Source: an uncultured Candidatus Saccharibacteria bacterium (GTDB taxonomy: Bacteria; Patescibacteriota; Minisyncoccia; Phycocordibacterales; PALSA-1337). From it: DNA of 64,000 nucleotides. The stretch spans positions 32,405-96,404 of the forward strand of contig CAZYBH010000001.1 of assembly GCA_964645315.1 (NCBI GenBank), written 5' to 3'. The position numbers and the translations under genes were made by a program. Of this stretch, positions 4,397 to 47,750 are shown piece after piece (positions within the stretch are counted from its first letter, which is position 1; each line of letters begins with the position of its first letter). A model generated the notes under the pieces. It saw only the letters and a list, made by a program, of their open reading frames with translations. It searched no databases and had not been told where the DNA came from.

Positions 4397-5032
4397 ATGA
4401 AGGTTGGAGCAGACACTATTCGCAATAGTGGCTCTATGCCTGCTGTCTTCTATGGTCCAAAAGAGACCTCAACTCCTATTATTGTAGATTCTATAGCCTT
4501 CAAAAAGGCTTGGAAGAAGGCTGGTTCTTCTTCTGTTATTATTTTGAAAGACGAAAAGGGCAATGAACACGAATCACTTATCCACGATGTAGATGTTCAT
4601 CCTCTTACCGATGAGCCAAGACATGCCGACTTCTATGTTATCGAAAAAGGCAAGAAAGTCCGCGTTGCCATTCCACTTATTTTCGAAGGTTCATCTCCAG
4701 CAGTCAAAGACTTGGGTGGTATTTTGGTCAAAGTTCGCCGTGATCTTGATATAGAGGCTGCTCCAAGAGATTTGCCTCAAAACCTTATTGTCGATATTTC
4801 AAAGCTTGCTCTATTGACCGATGTTATTACTGCAAAAGATATAGCTGTACCAAGCGGTGTTGAGATCAAGATCGGTTCAGATGAGGTTATCGCTTCGATC
4901 GCTGTTGCCAAGGAAGAAGTAGAAGAAGCTCCTACAGCGATAGATGTTTCCGCTATCGAAGTTGAGGCAAAGGGTAAGGAAGCAAAGGAAGGTGAAGCTC
5001 CTGCTGATGCTCCAGCTCCAGAAAAGAAATAA
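4397..5032 (+). CDS. rplY: 50S ribosomal protein L25 / general stress protein Ctc
   Basis: MKVGADTIRNSGSMPAVFYGPKE.. L25/Ctc N-terminal domain plus an acidic A/E/P-rich C-terminal tail typical of Ctc-form L25. Confidence 0.8.
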   Translation: MKVGADTIRNSGSMPAVFYGPKETSTPIIVDSIAFKKAWKKAGSSSVIILKDEKGNEHESLIHDVDVHPLTDEPRHADFYVIEKGKKVRVAIPLIFEGSSPAVKDLGGILVKVRRDLDIEAAPRDLPQNLIVDISKLALLTDVITAKDIAVPSGVEIKIGSDEVIASIAVAKEEVEEAPTAIDVSAIEVEAKGKEAKEGEAPADAPAPEKK

Positions 5033-5202
5033 TTTTTCATTAGTGCATAAGTCTGACATCTGCATATACAAAATACTGCCAAAAGCAGTTTTTTGTTGAT
5101 TTTGCTTATTGCATATGTCACACATATGTATACCAATATTCTATTTGCTATTCTTTTTTTATAGCTATGCTAAAATTAGGCGGTACCAATAATAAATTTT
5201 TT

Positions 5203-6666: not shown

Positions 6667-6709
6667 ATAATTTGCTAGGTTTAACCTCACAAAGTGTTAT
6701 AATAAAATT

Positions 6710-8056
6710 ATGAGAAAGGCGATTTTTTTGTTAATAACCGCTATTTTTTGTAGTTTTTTTGCATCTCAAGCATTGGCAGAGACTGCTTTGACGGATGAAC
6801 AAAGAGTGATGCTACAACAAGAATTGGCAAAAGTAGAGGCAGAGCAAAAGCAGGCTGCTATAGAGCTTGCAAATGCTCAGCAAAAGAGCGCCTCATTGGC
6901 AAGAGATATACAGGTTTTGGATGCCAAGATTAGAGCGGCACAGCTTGAGATAAAGGCCAAAAATATTTTGATACAGAGCCTAGGCAATGACATTTCCAAA
7001 AAGGTAAATAAAATAAATGACCTTGAAGATCGTATCGATAAGGGTAGGGATACTTTGGCTCAGATTTTGAGGAAGACAAATGAGATTGATCAAGTCTCGA
7101 TACCGATACTCCTATTATCTCAAAAGACTATTACAGGTTTTGTAAATGATTTGGATCAATTTGAATTGGTCCAAGAGAGTCTTCGGGATGTGGTGACAGA
7201 ACTCAAATCTGATAAGGCTTCGACTACGGTGGAAAAGGAGATACTAGATACTAGAAGAAATGCCGAAATGGATGCAAAATATGTTATCCAACAGCAACAA
7301 AAAAATATCGAAAGTGATCAGATAGAACAAAAGGAGTTATTGGCTTTGAGCAAAGGTGCCGAAAAATCATACACCAAGCTTATTGCCGAAAAGCAGGCAA
7401 GAGCAGCGCAGATCCGCTCGGCTTTGTTTGCCTTGAGAGATGCTGCTTCTATTCCATTTGGTCAGGCTTTGCAGTACGCTACTTTGGCCTCAAATAAGAC
7501 TGGCATAAGACCAGCTTTTTTGCTCGCTATTATTACTCAAGAATCAAACTTGGGTAGCAATGTGGGCAAATGTTATGTCACAAATCTTCAGACTGGAGCT
7601 GGTATAAATGCAAAGACGGGCAATAGTGTCCAAAATGTTATGAATCCCACTCGCGATATTCCAGCCTTTGTAGAAATTTTGAGCAAAATAGGTGGTGAGC
7701 CAACGAAACAAGTTGTCTCATGCCCACTAAGTGTCGGTTGGGGAGGAGCTATGGGTCCTGCTCAGTTTATCGCTTCGACATGGCTACTTATTGAAGATCG
7801 AGTAGCAAATTCTCTCGGTATAAATAGTATGCCAGATCCTTGGAATCCAGGACATGCCTTTATGGCTTCAGCTCTGTATTTGAGCGATTTGGGTGCCAAT
7901 ACCAAGACTTATACAGCAGAAAGAAACGCGGCTTGTAAATATTATTCTGGTAGGTCTTGTGGTTATGCTACTGGTAATACTTCATATGGCAATAGTGTCG
8001 TATCGCTCGCAGACAAAATACAACGTACTATGATTGATCCTTTGCAAGGATTGTAG
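6710..8056 (+). CDS. secreted coiled-coil protein with C-terminal lysozyme-like (lytic transglycosylase/SLT-like) domain
   Basis: Signal peptide. Q/E/K-rich coiled coil, aa 30-230. C-terminal FLLAIITQESNLG ... GPAQFIASTW resembles SLT-domain motifs (E-S ... GLMQ-like). Confidence 0.55.
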   Translation: MRKAIFLLITAIFCSFFASQALAETALTDEQRVMLQQELAKVEAEQKQAAIELANAQQKSASLARDIQVLDAKIRAAQLEIKAKNILIQSLGNDISKKVNKINDLEDRIDKGRDTLAQILRKTNEIDQVSIPILLLSQKTITGFVNDLDQFELVQESLRDVVTELKSDKASTTVEKEILDTRRNAEMDAKYVIQQQQKNIESDQIEQKELLALSKGAEKSYTKLIAEKQARAAQIRSALFALRDAASIPFGQALQYATLASNKTGIRPAFLLAIITQESNLGSNVGKCYVTNLQTGAGINAKTGNSVQNVMNPTRDIPAFVEILSKIGGEPTKQVVSCPLSVGWGGAMGPAQFIASTWLLIEDRVANSLGINSMPDPWNPGHAFMASALYLSDLGANTKTYTAERNAACKYYSGRSCGYATGNTSYGNSVVSLADKIQRTMIDPLQGL

Positions 8057-18191: not shown

Positions 18192-19061
18192 ATGAAGAAA
18201 CTATTCATCACGATTATATTGTTAGTTCTTCCGATTATAGTTTTCGCTTACAAAAGCCCTGGCAAACCTCAGGGCTTTGTAAGTGATTTTGCAAATATAA
18301 TTGATTCCAAAACCCGTCTTGATCTAGAAAATAAGCTGACTCAATTTGAAAAACAAAATGGGGTAGAAATTGCTATAGTGACCGTAAATAATCTAGACAA
18401 GGAAACGGTTGAGACATATGCAGTAAAGCTTTTCGAAGAATGGAAAATAGGCAAATCTGGGAAAGATAATGGTATTTTGCTTCTGGTCGCCCCAAATGAA
18501 AGGGAAGTTAGGATAGAAGTGGGATATGGTCTTGAGGGTACTATTACCGATCTTCTTGCCAATAAGATTATTCAGCAAGAGATCATTCCCCAATTTAAGA
18601 GAAATAATTATTCAGAAGGCATTGCAAATGGAGTAAATTCTATTATTGGCATTATAAGCAAAGATATCGATCCTGCTATATACGATCCTGATAAGTCTGA
18701 CATGCCAATTTTCGACAGAGTTGATCCTAGAATTATTATATTTATATTTTTCATCTCTTTCGGTGCGGTAATGAGATTTTTATCCAAGACCAAATCTTGG
18801 TGGTTGGGTGGTATTATGGGTGGTGTTTTGGGTTTGATAATAAGTATTTTTGTCGGTTTTCTTTACTTCGGTCTTACTCTAACTATTATCCTTACAATTT
18901 TCGGATTAATCCTTGATTATAATGCCTCCCGAAAGGGCCCTGGCGGCTTCGGTGGTGGTCGTGGAGGTTTCGGAGGATTTGGTGGGGGCCATAGTGGTGG
19001 TGGCTTCGGCGGTTTCGGTGGCGGTTTCTCCGGTGGTGGTGGCAGTAGTGGGAGGTGGTGA
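18192..19061 (+). CDS. TPM-domain (TLP18.3/Psb32/MOLO-1) protein with TM segment and Gly-rich C-terminal tail
   Basis: FVSDFANIIDSKTRLDLENKL..FEKQNGVEIAIVTV..LFEEWKIGKSGKDNGILLLVAPNEREVRIEVGYGLEG = TPM phosphatase-like domain. C-terminal GGFGGGRGGFGGFGGG repeats. Canonical partner of LemA. Confidence 0.75.
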   Translation: MKKLFITIILLVLPIIVFAYKSPGKPQGFVSDFANIIDSKTRLDLENKLTQFEKQNGVEIAIVTVNNLDKETVETYAVKLFEEWKIGKSGKDNGILLLVAPNEREVRIEVGYGLEGTITDLLANKIIQQEIIPQFKRNNYSEGIANGVNSIIGIISKDIDPAIYDPDKSDMPIFDRVDPRIIIFIFFISFGAVMRFLSKTKSWWLGGIMGGVLGLIISIFVGFLYFGLTLTIILTIFGLILDYNASRKGPGGFGGGRGGFGGFGGGHSGGGFGGFGGGFSGGGGSSGRW

Positions 19062-19147
19062 TTTGGTGAGAACTAGTATGTGCATATGTCTGACTTATGC
19101 AAAGAATTATAAACGCAGCTTCATTAAAATCAAATGTAATGGACAAA

Positions 19148-19723
19148 TCAGGCCCGAATATCACTATATCTTGGCGAGAATTTCAATTGATTTGAAATGT
19201 CAGTGATCAAATCGGCCAGAGTAATTCCTTTGAGTTTTGCTCTGTGTTCAGCTTGTTCAAGATTATTGACAGCAATAACTTTTTGACTGATGGACTGTAT
19301 GCCGATATTACCTACTACAGCATTGTCAATAATATCATAGGCAATTGACTGTATGTTTAGGGGTGTTCCTGAAAGAAAGTTTTCAATAGTCGGATCAAGG
19401 CCTCTACGAATTATTGAATGAATATTATTAAGGGGAACATAATCAATTTCATAATTAGGGCCTATAAGTTTTGGATTATTGTAACTATTTTTCCCAATTT
19501 TCCAATTTGTTGGAACTTTTATCTCTGCTGGCTTTTCAATTATGAAATCTAAATCGACATCTTTAGACATTGGAATGCCATAAAGATCCTGAATTATACT
19601 TCTGAACACAAATCCACCAATTAACCATGCTTTTCCCTTGGAACTTTTCCTAATTATTTCTACAGCTTCCTTAAACTCATGATAATTATTAGCGACTTTT
19701 AAAAAAGATTGGGTGTAATCCAT
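19148..19723 (-). CDS. hypothetical protein, possible minimal nucleotidyltransferase-fold protein
   Basis: AWLIGGFVFRSIIQDLYGIPMSKDVDLDFII resembles the hG[GS]...[DE]h[DE]h Pol-beta NTase core. Weak. Confidence 0.3.
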   Translation of the reverse strand: MDYTQSFLKVANNYHEFKEAVEIIRKSSKGKAWLIGGFVFRSIIQDLYGIPMSKDVDLDFIIEKPAEIKVPTNWKIGKNSYNNPKLIGPNYEIDYVPLNNIHSIIRRGLDPTIENFLSGTPLNIQSIAYDIIDNAVVGNIGIQSISQKVIAVNNLEQAEHRAKLKGITLADLITDISNQLKFSPRYSDIRA

Positions 19724-19840
19724 GATTTTCTAGATCATATTGATAGTAGCATATTTAACTCGAATTTCTATCAGATATTTATTTAACCTGAAGATGTTTA
19801 GCTGATTGCAGAGCAAGTCTACTTTATGGGGTACAGATCA

Positions 19841-19859
19841 GCGGAGGGTAAGGGATTCG
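19841..19859. repeat. 19-bp direct duplicate of the tRNA-Ser 3' end (gcggagggtaagggattcg), putative att remnant
   Basis: Identical to 20007-20025 (3' acceptor/T-arm of the minus-strand tRNA). The intervening 147 bp is GC-rich. Confidence 0.7.
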
Positions 19860-20007
19860 GTCACGAGTTTCCTCGCTGCAGCTCGGAACTCGCGACCCCG
19901 ACTTGCGGCTCGGCGTGCTCGCCTCGCACGCTCCGTCTTTCTCATCTCCTTACTCTCTCGCAATATAATTCACTCAAAGGTCATTTAGACCTTTTCGCGA
20001 ATTATTG

Positions 20008-20092
20008 CGGAGGGTAAGGGATTCGAACCCTTGGTGAGTTGCCCCACACACGCTTTCCAAGCGTGCGCACTAGACCACTATGCGAACCCTCC
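20008..20092 (-). tRNA. tRNA-Ser (anticodon GGA) with long variable arm, discriminator G, no encoded CCA
   Basis: Reverse complement folds as a cloverleaf: acceptor GGAGGGU/ACCCUCC, D-loop AGUGGUCUA, anticodon stem CACGC/GCGUG with loop UUGGAAA (U33, anticodon GGA, A37), 16-nt variable arm, T-loop UUCGAAU. Confidence 0.8.
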
Positions 20093-20175
20093 TTTGCACT
20101 CGTCCATAATAAACTAGAGATGAAGTACTAGCAAATATGTGTGTCCGGGAGGTTGCACATCCCGAATAGAATTTT

Positions 20176-20184
20176 GTGGTATAA
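20176..20184 (+). promoter_or_regulatory. extended -10 promoter element (tgGTATAAT) upstream of small ORF
   Basis: TGnTATAAT 20 bp upstream of the AGGAGG RBS of ORF 20205..20423. Confidence 0.45.
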
Positions 20185-20204
20185 TATGACCAGAAGGAGG
20201 TAGC

Positions 20205-20423
20205 ATGAAAATGAATCACAAAAAGTCTCCAGTTGGTACAAGTGGGACCGGTCGGGAGGTTACTGTGAGAATCAGTGTTCATCGGGTAAATTTGGAGCGA
20301 GGTGGTAATTCTCCTGGACTCGTTCCAACTTCCAATCCCATTCCGGCAAATCATCAGGCCGGAAATCGTGGCCAAGCTATGCAAGATGAGACTTGGCCTC
20401 ACGGTCGCGTCTATAGCGACTAA
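20205..20423 (+). CDS. small hypothetical protein (72 aa), GC-rich, island-borne
   Basis: Strong RBS gaAGGAGGtagcATG. Immediately followed by an intrinsic terminator. GC content much higher than the host genes. Protein is low-complexity with no TM. Confidence 0.45.
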   Translation: MKMNHKKSPVGTSGTGREVTVRISVHRVNLERGGNSPGLVPTSNPIPANHQAGNRGQAMQDETWPHGRVYSD

Positions 20424-20425
20424 AT

Positions 20426-20459
20426 AAAACCGCTTCATGGGTCAGGGGAAGCGGTTTTG
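20426..20459 (+). terminator. rho-independent terminator (aaaccgcttc..gaagcggtttt)
   Basis: Perfect 10-bp stem followed by a T-run directly after the stop codon at 20423. Confidence 0.7.
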
Positions 20460-20460
20460 A

Positions 20461-20500
20461 AATTATAAACAAAAACCCCAGCTGTGTGCGTCCCGACGCA
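20461..20500 (-). terminator. rho-independent terminator for minus-strand ORF 20582..20997
   Basis: On the minus strand: cagctggcagtgcgtcgggacgcacacagctg hairpin followed by ggggttttt. Confidence 0.55.
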
Positions 20501-20581
20501 CTGCCAGCTGAGGTCCCGATTCCGCCACGGGCCAATACCGCGACAGTTTCGAAATCATCCTATTCTATAGCTTGAGTGGAG

Positions 20582-20997
20582 TCAAGCCACGTGTTCGAGC
20601 CGGGTGTGGTCGATAGTAATGGGTGCGAGTCGGAGAGTGCCACGGTCGAATTCTTCGACGAGAGAAGACAGTTGCAATCTTCCTGCCTCGTCTGAAGTAT
20701 CCGTTTCGTAATCAAACTCACCCTCAACACCGATTCCACAGGCGACGATGATGGTTTTGGCTCCATGGCGTCGGATTTGTTTGGTCAGACCTCGGGATCC
20801 TTCGAAGTGATGGACGAGGACGAGGTTCGCTTCTTCGCAGTTCAGATTGGCAGTAACAAGATCACTCGGATTTCCATTGAGATCCTGATCATCAATGGCG
20901 ATTTTGATTGCCCTGTGAAGCCGACTGCACCAGAAAGCATCGCAAAATCCTTCGGCAATCTGTTTATTTGTGCCAACCACAATCAATTTCCTCATGT
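20582..20997 (-). CDS. hypothetical GC-rich protein (137 aa), possibly flavodoxin-like/Rossmann-like fold
   Basis: RBS AGGAGGaaacATG. MRKLIVVGTNKQ.. ...TIIVACGIGVEGEF. Compositionally foreign (GC-rich). No confident family. Confidence 0.45.
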
Positions 20998-21150
20998 TTC
21001 CTCCTGTTAGGGGTTCTGTTTTCCAGTAAAACCATACTCCTGTATTCAAATTATGTCAAACTTATTATTTGGGTAATATCAGTTAATTAATATTATTCTA
21101 GGTACTCATAGTTAAAGTTTTATCTTTGACTGTTCAAAATAAATAAACAG

Positions 21151-21167
21151 AAAACCCCCAGAGGGGG
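21151..21167 (-). terminator. rho-independent terminator (ccccc-tct-ggggg + T-run) for minus-strand ORF 21189..21467
   Basis: aaaacccccagaggggg on the plus strand, giving a hairpin plus U-run on the minus strand just downstream of the stop. Confidence 0.55.
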
Positions 21168-21188
21168 TGTTCGTTCGCTTTATTGTTT

Positions 21189-21467
21189 TCATCCAAAGAG
21201 TTCTTCAAGAGCCATTTTGATTAGACGCCTCGTTTTTATTTTTGTTTTTAGTTGGATTTGCTTTCCCTTTCGGATATTTTTTTCGCGAATGACTTTGGTT
21301 TTTATGGACTTAAAATTTGGATCTTCCGTGGCATTCCTGATTATTTTTACTTTGGAACGACCGGCCAAGTAACCCTTCAGGAATTTCTTGAAATACTTCC
21401 TTCTGACTTGACTTGACATAACCCTTTGTTCAACCACATGCTTGGAGGGCGGGGGAGTTGATTCCAT
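21189..21467 (-). CDS. small highly basic hypothetical protein (K/R-rich, 76-92 aa)
   Basis: ORF plus downstream terminator. Sequence ..RRKYFKKFLKGYLAGRSKVKIIR..KTRRLIKMALEELFG. Possibly a nucleic-acid-binding protein. Start Met ambiguous (21467 or 21419). Confidence 0.35.
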   Translation of the reverse strand: MESTPPPSKHVVEQRVMSSQVRRKYFKKFLKGYLAGRSKVKIIRNATEDPNFKSIKTKVIREKNIRKGKQIQLKTKIKTRRLIKMALEELFG

Positions 21468-21666
21468 ACCATTGTGGTGTTTTAGTTGAAAAGAGGTACA
21501 AAGTTCAGTCTAGGATATTACCTTGAAAATGTTTTTTTGCCAAATTATATTCATACAGAAGTCTGACATATGCATTGCAGAAGTCAGACTTCTGTATCTA
21601 TGTGTATTTCTATGTCTCTGCTTTGGTATAATGAATATTATAAATAAAATAACTAATTATTAAAAA

Positions 21667-47289: not shown

Positions 47290-47750
47290 AAGAGGATATC
47301 GAAGGATGTCGGAGGATGTTGCACATCCTTTGTGAGGTTAAACCTCACAAAATAAACCGAGCTCCCAGAGGGAGCTCGTGTATGGACGAATCAGAGATCG
47401 TTCTGTCCGTCTATCCGCGGGAGGCGTGGTGGATGTTGGACGTTCCCGATGTTGAAGACGGCCGACAATCGAGACCAAACCTGTCATTGGGCCGTCTGGC
47501 CCGATTGGGTTTGGAATGGTTGGTCGGAGCCTTTTTGGGTCGTTCCATTCCAGGATCCCATCCGCGATGTTGTCGATCACTCATGGTGTTTTCCAATAAA
47601 TTCCAACCCCTCACTGGAGCTGGTTCGAGTAAATATACTACATCATTTATAAAAAAATGCCAATGGGGATTATTACCTCAGGGGATGTACCCCTCTATTT
47701 CATCGGGGCAAGACACATCCTTTGGCGAAAAAGTTTTATCTTTTCTTTAT
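47290..47750. other. GC-rich ~0.45-kb islet of uncertain nature (possible structured RNA or foreign DNA remnant)
   Basis: Marked GC excess. Contains palindrome tgtgaggttaaacctcaca, hairpin gagctccc-aga-gggagctc, and motifs shared with 20151 (ggaggttgcacatcc) and 62885 (gatgtaccc.tctatttcat.gggg). ORF-track ORFs here on both strands overlap each other and lack RBSs. Confidence 0.5.

Follow-up and report, generated by a model that had tools for sequence, protein, structure and literature searches.

What leaves a second copy of the end of a tRNA gene a short distance beyond the gene itself? We addressed this question for a tRNA-Ser(GGA) gene in a 64,000-nucleotide (nt) stretch of contig CAZYBH010000001.1, from an uncultured Candidatus Saccharibacteria bacterium; the whole of this 64-kb stretch is referred to as the window. 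An initial annotation had read the duplication as a trace of integrase-mediated insertion, left either by the eroded remnant of a mobile element or by a miniature element. In our analysis, the copy proved to be one arm of a folded element, designated element X, which recurs behind several tRNA genes. Gene content (LemA, a TPM-domain protein, ribosomal protein S16, a KH-domain protein, TrmD, RpoB/C, and GroEL) and the closest database relatives place the window within the Patescibacteria, or candidate phyla radiation (CPR). Metagenome-assembled genomes carrying the labels Saccharibacteria, Paceibacterota, or Parcubacteria gave the best matches. The guanine-plus-cytosine (GC) content of the window is ~39% (64-kb mean of 0.387 by GC windows).

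The 3' end of tRNA-Ser(GGA) is duplicated exactly

The sequence GCGGAGGGTAAGGGATTCG occurs in the window exactly twice, at 19841-19859 and 20007-20025, with the starts 166 bp apart. On the tRNA strand, the 19-nt copy extends from C56 of the T-loop to the discriminator base. As the initial annotation had stated, the copy lies 147 bp past the gene and is exact (19/19 nt). Recurrence of the 19 bp by chance elsewhere, which the annotation had named as a concern, was checked: no third copy was found in the 64-kb window at ≤3 mismatches, and 0 were expected in shuffled sequences.

The DNA around the tRNA is rich in GC, as claimed; the 800-bp windows from 19801 to 20301 have the highest values in the 64 kb (0.48 to 0.505, versus 0.387). 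The description of the enclosed 147 bp as GC rich applies to the distal ~107 bp (61% GC) but not to the 40 bp on the tRNA side, an AT-rich hairpin spacer. Likewise, the proposed att-type signature stands in part. There is a real, nonrandom duplication of a tRNA 3' end, of the sort left by an insertion, but neither an integrase nor cargo was found in the searches described below.

The tail copy closes a folded three-way junction

On the tRNA strand, the order of features is tRNA, spacer hairpin, inverted tail copy, GC-rich core, direct tail copy, and native flank (Table 1). The inverted and direct tail copies pair with each other to form a stem of 17 to 20 bp, P1, which closes a junction carrying the helices P2 and P3. 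The whole element measures ~125 nt, of which the core accounts for about 85 to 105 nt. The window copy scored 115.5 bits with covariance model R1 (E~2e-27), and its predicted RNA fold has a free energy of -60.8 kcal/mol (z=-5.6). When parameters for single-stranded DNA were used, the sense strand gave an identical three-way junction with a z score of -3.5, compared with -2.3 for the antisense strand.

Two relatives were available for the tRNA-Ser locus, L003 and L007, of which L007 is the closest; contigs encoding an identical S16 protein came from the same three lineages only. L007 carries a near-identical element at the same site, with a direct repeat that reaches ~63 bp into the spacer, and L003 carries a divergent version, also at the same site. 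The repeat unit of 166 bp consists of the tail from C56, the spacer/terminator hairpin, the inverted tail copy, and the core. The spacer hairpin belongs to this unit, and in L007 and L003 a second, diverged copy of it follows the tail copy.

The architecture and its fold recur in independent contigs

Metagenomes were scanned with the junction "tail + G" as the probe. The matches were of two kinds: tRNAs with variant T-loops together with scattered chance matches, and the same architecture in independent contigs. The latter comprised the groups L080/L126/L130/L146 and L082/L086/L132/L136 and the contigs L090, L097, L105, and L152, in addition to L003 and L007. In L080/L126/L130/L146, the element lies 3' of tRNA-Ser(TGA). 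All copies are co-oriented with a tRNA and lie immediately 3' of it. No open reading frame (ORF) is common to the copies, and no integrase lies between the repeats in any copy found.

Fifteen copies were folded. Each of them formed the arm-closed stem P1, and the tRNA-sense strand always folded more stably than its antisense counterpart. Nearly all showed the three-helix junction, ten diverse copies among them, with extra hairpins in the copy linked to tRNA-Ile. We scored covariation on a MAFFT alignment with a hand-drawn structure. Paired cells amounted to 88.5%, compared with 35 to 45% when the 3' partners were slid along the alignment. Double changes were seen at eight pairs (14 cells), and the covariation score was reached by none of 500 shuffles. 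A G.U pair within P3 is conserved. The distal sequences of P2 and P3 are unrelated between lineages, being AT rich in L152 and L097, and still form hairpins. The copies display one hallmark of a structured RNA gene, namely, conserved secondary structure with compensatory substitutions. Since the fold is conserved, covarying, and strand biased, this implies that the structure matters for the propagation or the function of the element.

The same core lies behind different tRNAs, with arms matching each

The full covariance model also retrieved one copy downstream of tRNA-Leu(CAA), in L023, and a weaker match downstream of tRNA-Ile(GAT), in L021. A second covariance model was built from the core without its arms and was trained on Ser-linked copies only. 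This model matched the Leu-linked copy with 32 bits (E=5e-7), the Ile-linked copy with 23 bits (E=2e-4), and a copy downstream of tRNA-Val(TAC) with 29 bits (E=4e-6). The last match, at 6924-7041 of L130, is a second, divergent copy behind tRNA-Val. When every tRNA in the loci examined was checked for a duplicated tail, three cases were added: tRNA-Arg(TCT) in L130, tRNA-Ser(TGA) in L086, and another, second copy of the element downstream of tRNA-Ile.

Without exception, the 3' arm starts at C56 of the adjacent tRNA, with the 5' arm as its reverse complement. L130 allows a comparison within one contig: the first tRNA-Val copy (about 6683-6858) and the tRNA-Arg unit are ~90% identical in terminator and core, and their arms differ, each following its own tRNA. 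A homologous core is thereby shown behind tRNA-Ser(GGA), tRNA-Ser(TGA), tRNA-Leu(CAA), tRNA-Ile(GAT), and tRNA-Val(TAC). A homologous core probably lies behind tRNA-Arg(TCT) too, judging from alignment.

The element varies in presence and copy number

A pair of empty and occupied sites is available at tRNA-Leu. Around this gene, L014 and L023 are near-identical save for a 119-bp indel; L023 has the element, and L014 is without it. The indel comprises the core together with a single copy of an 18-bp direct repeat. As a side observation at the same gene, the stem of the tRNA-Leu terminator is the same in L014 (8060-8075) and L023 (10275-10290), and its tetraloop is inverted (GAAA versus TTTC).

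L082 contains a perfect 80-bp direct repeat that extends from C56, across the terminator, up to where the inverted arm begins. In L130, a 208-bp unit starting exactly at C56 of tRNA-Arg forms a tandem array of 2.1 copies of 95% identity, and two successive copies of the element lie downstream of tRNA-Ile. Across loci, the flanking direct repeats measure 18, 19, ~63, 80, or ~105 bp. Occupancy is patchy: neither L023 nor L013 has the element behind tRNA-Ser(GGA). Three of the five tRNAs on the 14.5-kb contig L130 are occupied. The initial annotation had suggested that further copies of the GC-rich 147-bp segment be sought. With the filters of the covariance-model search switched off, the 64-kb window yielded one copy only. 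Larger elements bounded by a distant second tRNA-tail copy were also looked for, and no relevant case was present in any of the loci examined.

Table 1. Features of the window around tRNA-Ser(GGA)
Feature	Position	Strand	Basis or remarks
tRNA-Ser(GGA)	20007-20092	-	ARAGORN; Rfam RF00005, 57.1 bits; CCA not encoded
Promoter-like site just upstream of tRNA-Ser(GGA)	20134-20106	-	Promoter scan
Spacer hairpin directly 3' of the tRNA (AATAATTCGCGAAAAGGTCTAAATGACCTTTGAGTGAATT...)	19964..20006	-	Sequence; comparison with L003 and L007
Structured element X (5' arm, GC-rich core, 3' arm)	19839..19963	-	Covariance-model limits
5' arm, imperfect reverse complement of tRNA 3' end and trailer (TTGCGAGAGAGTAAGGAGATG)	19943..19963	-	Fold, pair counts
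Helix P2 of the core (GAC-GGA-GC...GC-AA-GUC)	19900..19937	-	Fold, alignment
Helix P3 of the core; base GGUCGCGAG/CUCGUGACC conserved, abuts the 3' arm	19859..19897	-	Fold, alignment
3' arm, exact 19-nt copy of tRNA-Ser 3' end (C56 to discriminator)	19841..19859	-	Repeat search
Native flank past the outer tail copy (TGATCTGTACCCC...)			
191-aa gene just past the 3' arm, same strand	19148..19723	-	ORF list, AlphaFold, fold search
72-aa ORF	20205..20423	+	Outside the element; ORF list, comparison with L003 and L007
137-aa orphan ORF, beta-alpha-beta pattern	20582..20995	-	3' hairpins and terminator at 20471-20513; outside the element
92-aa K/R-rich ORF	21189..21467	-	Outside the element

Three small ORFs 5' of the tRNA are inherited, not cargo

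The initial annotation had assigned three small ORFs on the other side of the tRNA to the putative mobile element as its cargo. The ORFs exist, with lengths of 72, 137, and 92 aa, but the ATG of the 137-aa ORF is at 20995 rather than 20997. By inspection, the 72-aa ORF has the expression signals claimed for it, an extended -10 element (TGgTATAAT, 20177-20185), a ribosome-binding site (AAGGAGG, 20194-20200), and a terminator (20426-20459). In a consensus scan, both minus-strand ORFs had promoter-like sites (21059-21031 and 21543-21515). No credible match to any of the three was found in Pfam, NCBIfam, PADLOC, or PHROG; the sole library match was a weak one of the 92-aa ORF to PADLOC Cas11 (E=0.0036). 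For the 72-aa ORF, the homologue search retrieved none; between the window and the two relatives L003 and L007, its conservation amounts to only 51 to 57% amino acid identity. The family of the 137-aa protein has about 5 members among billions of proteins, and its AlphaFold model has a predicted local distance difference test (pLDDT) score of 49.

The assignment as cargo did not survive comparison with the relatives. The ORFs lie 5' of the tRNA and outside the repeats, and in L003 and L007 the same flanks enclose the 72-aa and 137-aa genes, whose promoters and terminators are conserved. GC content over the three-ORF stretch is ~50% in all three genomes. The 72-aa and 137-aa ORFs gave synonymous distances (dS) of 0.16 to 0.68 and ratios of nonsynonymous to synonymous distance (dN/dS) of 0.38 to 0.78; for the flanking genes encoding LemA, the TPM-domain protein, and a short-chain dehydrogenase/reductase (SDR), dS was 0.27 to 1.07 and dN/dS was 0.05 to 0.13. 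Recent acquisition is thereby contradicted, both by the flank-like dS and by relatives that share the flanks and the GC profile, which the annotation itself had named as evidence of an ancestral state. Because of this conservation and these distances, the 72-aa and 137-aa ORFs are real, weakly constrained protein genes that diverge along with their flanks.

Of the third ORF, L003 (9553-9822) and L007 (6985-7230) share with the window (~21176-21430) the promoter, the terminator, and, at the start of the coding sequence, 12 codons (MESTPPPSKHVV). The body is swapped for unrelated sequence, K/R rich over 92 aa in the window and acidic over 89 aa in the relatives. The replacement is cassette-like, with sharp boundaries. 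Identities across 18192-21467 form a mosaic: for the 137-aa gene and the element, the window and L007 are closest, and for the 72-aa gene and the TPM gene, L003 and L007 are closest. This pattern points to homologous recombination among related strains across the locus. Given their presence at the same flanks in L003 and L007 and their flank-like dS, the three ORFs are best described, on comparative grounds, as fast-evolving, lineage-specific orphans inherited vertically within the clade. They may have been acquired anciently by the ancestor of the clade; nothing ties them to the tRNA-tail repeat. The cluster of small GC-rich ORFs beside the tRNA is thus no evidence of a recent island.

Searches for a recombinase and for known relatives

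The reported absence of an integrase was borne out. Pfam scans found no recombinase domain in eight ORFs around the tRNA or in ten integrase-sized ORFs elsewhere in the window, a crude regular expression for the box-II motif of tyrosine recombinases had no match in the window, and the annotation of a syntenic relative lists no integrase within +/-10 kb. A search of Rfam 15 returned the tRNA itself only, both at the gathering threshold and at E<=10, with no match to transfer-messenger RNA (tmRNA), YrlA, a group I intron, or a ribozyme. Three motif scans of IMG/VR followed by covariance-model rescoring gave nothing similar, and blastn against phage and plasmid collections found no similar sequence. 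The literature searches brought up no description of the element; the nearest topic among their results is the group I introns in tRNAs of Patescibacteria.

Several other identities were considered and set aside. The known group I introns in tRNAs of Patescibacteria interrupt the anticodon loop at 35/36 and exceed 200 nt (PMC13011429); element X shares with them the link between unusual RNA elements and tRNA genes in Patescibacteria but lies outside an intact tRNA. A hammerhead core, the tRNA-like domain of tmRNA, and a selenocysteine tRNA were rejected by motif inspection and the lack of an Rfam match. A retroelement primer-binding site does not fit, as the 5' arm complements the genomic trailer (..GCAATA) and not CCA. 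A palindrome from a hairpin-capped end was rejected on the repeat at the L082 flank, which is direct and has the same loop orientation. An element-encoded peptide was discarded too, an ORF of 35 to 41 aa being conserved neither in length nor in frame in L003.

Element X as a proposed miniature insertion element

Because the folded element recurs behind several tRNAs with arms that match the local tRNA, we read it as an integrase-less miniature insertion element. More precisely, with moderate confidence we take X to be a recurrent, nonautonomous, structure-dependent selfish element acting at tRNA T-loops. Compared with a scar or a housekeeping RNA, a small selfish element accounts better for the unit anchored at the T-loop, the rebuilt tail, tandem accretion, presence/absence variation, several copies per contig, and the lack of an ORF. 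Of the two options in the initial annotation, "miniature element" is the one that fits best. Each insertion would rebuild the tail of the tRNA and would often supply the tRNA with a terminator. By analogy with integron attC and the attP(+) hairpin of CTX phage, the conserved fold would probably be the recombination substrate, as a folded single strand. P1 would recreate the duplex of the T-arm and acceptor end of the tRNA gene, and a recombinase encoded elsewhere would act on the folded strand. A bolder version, which we offer tentatively and doubt more than we believe, is a new class of element in which a junction core of ~100 nt moves between tRNA genes, gains "programmable" arms templated by the target, and inserts at C56 via a folded single-stranded DNA or RNA intermediate. 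If true, this programmable-arm mechanism has no described counterpart.

A number of points weigh against an insertion element. Neither an autonomous, recombinase-bearing relative nor an excised form was found. The making of an inverted copy at each new target lacks an explanation, and a circle of 166 to 208 bp is an awkward substrate for recombination. Repeat lengths between 18 and ~105 bp are at odds both with a fixed target-site duplication and with a single fixed att identity block. The difference between L014 and L023 could reflect deletion between preexisting repeats instead of insertion. The tRNA-Ser site is occupied in the window, L003, and L007 alike; with the element at the same site in all three genomes, the clade therefore offers no empty tRNA-Ser site. 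Finally, the Arg copies, known from alignment and by eye, had no match at E<1 in either covariance model, and the copies come from a small sample of about 12 independent lineages, obtained with probes that favour tRNA-Ser.

Among the rival explanations, the most serious starts from the fold itself. X could be a stable structured noncoding RNA (ncRNA), derived from a tRNA and serving the host, which is cotranscribed with the tRNA by read-through and whose terminal stem mimics the acceptor/T-arm minihelix as a decoy, a processing signal, or a platform for tRNA-end enzymes. Such a role, which is compatible with mobility, agrees with the conserved junction with its compensatory changes and G.U pair in P3, with the better fold of 15/15 copies in the tRNA sense, and with their constant orientation and position immediately 3' of a tRNA. 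In the window, read-through from the tRNA promoter (Table 1) is plausible because the spacer hairpin is without a U-tract. However, a consensus scan found no promoter-like site between the tRNA and the element in the window, and canonical U-tract terminators separate the two in L080, L082, and L130. The element is dispensable, as seen in L014 without it and L023 with it, its outer stem is decaying in L003 and L023, and no conserved protein partner adjoins it. Moreover, tandem copies, and copies with the same core and different arms in one genome, are typical of repeat elements. We consider a host-serving ncRNA unlikely, though well short of negligible.

Much less probable is the view that a larger, integrase-bearing island at tRNA-Ser has eroded here, leaving the three small ORFs as what survives of its cargo. 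The direct repeat of the tRNA 3' end, a GC content that exceeds the genome mean to either side of the tRNA, and gene content that varies past the tail copy (only the window has the 191-aa gene; L082 has a toxin-antitoxin-like pair) would suit an island. Yet the ORFs lie 5' of the tRNA and outside the repeats, all available relatives share them at the same flanks with flank-like dS, and no integrase fragment was present in the scans. Independent erosion, moreover, cannot yield the same covarying core of ~100 nt behind six tRNA species; its conservation in many lineages, behind at least five tRNA species, is at odds with the remnant proposed in the initial annotation. As the relatives share flanks and GC profile, we regard this explanation as largely refuted and very improbable. 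Chance or slippage duplication of the 19 bp, with no biological identity, would suit the presence of only two copies in the window and is practically dismissed by the zero matches expected, the recurrence of the architecture in >10 independent assemblies, and the fold z score of -5.6.

Comparison with known systems

The tRNA att sites of tyrosine-integrase islands and prophages, and those of cis-mobilizable elements (CIMEs), their att-flanked derivatives that lack an integrase, resemble element X in the direct repeat of the tRNA 3' end from the T-loop and the rebuilt tRNA, in tandem accretion at one tRNA, and in variable genes past the outer repeat. (For background on tRNA fragments, see PMC9897764.) The element has the tail repeat of such islands but neither their integrase nor cargo between the repeats; only 147 bp separate the window repeats, and a 41-aa ORF there is not conserved in L003. 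Its unit is 150 to 210 bp, contains no ORF, and carries an inverted copy of the target tail. Its core occurs behind different tRNAs with matching arms, which is impossible for a fixed attP, and its repeats range from 18 to 105 bp.

Integron attC and CTX-phage attP(+) are recombination sites made of a folded single strand, and with them the element shares imperfect inverted repeats, a long stem with bulged bases, variable distal structure, structure kept more than sequence, a stem resembling the chromosomal target duplex, and strand bias. Unlike these, it lacks IntI or Xer/dif-type motifs, targets the tRNA T-loop, and forms a three-way junction where they have a simple hairpin. Like miniature inverted-repeat transposable elements (MITEs) and REPINs, it is small, noncoding, hairpin forming, and nonautonomous, with presence/absence polymorphism and several copies in some contigs. 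In contrast to MITEs, whose terminal inverted repeats are element specific and are accompanied by a fixed short target-site duplication, the inverted repeats of X copy the local target with no such fixed duplication, and the element is strictly tRNA adjacent and co-oriented, with one copy in the 64-kb window. The tRNA-like domain of tmRNA and YrlA share the mimicry of acceptor and T-arm; X differs in lacking a T-loop, a tag ORF, and any Rfam match at E<=10.

Neighboring genes and other features of the window

The 191-aa gene past the 3' arm starts 117 nt downstream of the mimic of the tRNA acceptor. The sequence just past the 19-nt copy differs between the window and both L003 and L007, where this gene is absent. 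The protein had no sequence match in Pfam, NCBIfam, or the Protein Data Bank (PDB). Its AlphaFold model (pLDDT 95.6) matches class II CCA-adding enzymes over the head and neck only (probability 1.0, template-modelling score 0.56 to 0.66); the body and tail domains of class II tRNA nucleotidyltransferases are missing. Its family has 76+ members across CPR lineages in unrelated contexts. An obligatory partnership with the element was rejected on these contexts and on the absence of the gene beside the element in L003 and L007. Because the family is widespread in CPR but occurs in unrelated contexts, its position next to a mimic of a tRNA end is probably a coincidence.

Beside other copies of the element, two observations were made by eye from the DNA. 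In L080, an HNH-endonuclease-like ORF (..HHIDRNRDNNNLNNLELLCPNCH..; ~4760-5075, plus strand) ends just upstream of the element-bearing tRNA-Ser(TGA), and in L082 a toxin-antitoxin-like gene pair lies past the tail copy.

The initial annotation had linked the GC-rich DNA near the tRNA to an islet at 47.3 kb through a shared motif, GGAGGTTGCACATCC (20148). A match does exist at 47314, but with one mismatch and 0.07 expected it is marginal, and this palindrome is not at the same place in L003 and L007; a connection through this 15-mer is weak. At the islet, a GC-rich intergenic stretch upstream of typA (47290-47640, minus strand) folds with -128 kcal/mol (z=-5.45). At its end stands an intrinsic terminator, with two further hairpins behind it, and Rfam gave no match at E<1; the stretch is an unclassified structured RNA or else a small GC-rich ORF. 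A different palindrome of ~19 to 21 bp, TGCA(T/G)A(A/T)GTC(T/A)GAC(A/T)T(A/C)TGCA, occurs at 766, 5044, 5110, 19081, 21553-21597, and 36378; a 19-mer search gave 10 matches at six loci, with 0.03 expected. The copies checked, at 19081-19101 and 21553-21597, are intergenic and flank the region studied here, and the palindrome is a candidate operator or repeat element.

Implications

The genomes of Patescibacteria are tiny and are regarded as poor in mobile elements. A nonautonomous insertion element that targets tRNA genes is a known kind of element; that its mechanism is new in this case is a real possibility. The partial tRNA copies that such elements contain can mislead island finders that rely on direct repeats of tRNA fragments, and the conserved fold is a ready target for a covariance-model census and for transcript mapping. 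If our reading of X as a miniature insertion element is true, a family that rebuilds tRNA tails, brings its own terminator, and re-tailors its arms to each tRNA would give selfish DNA or tRNA-linked RNA, in elements of 150 to 210 bp, a new means of persisting in minimal genomes.

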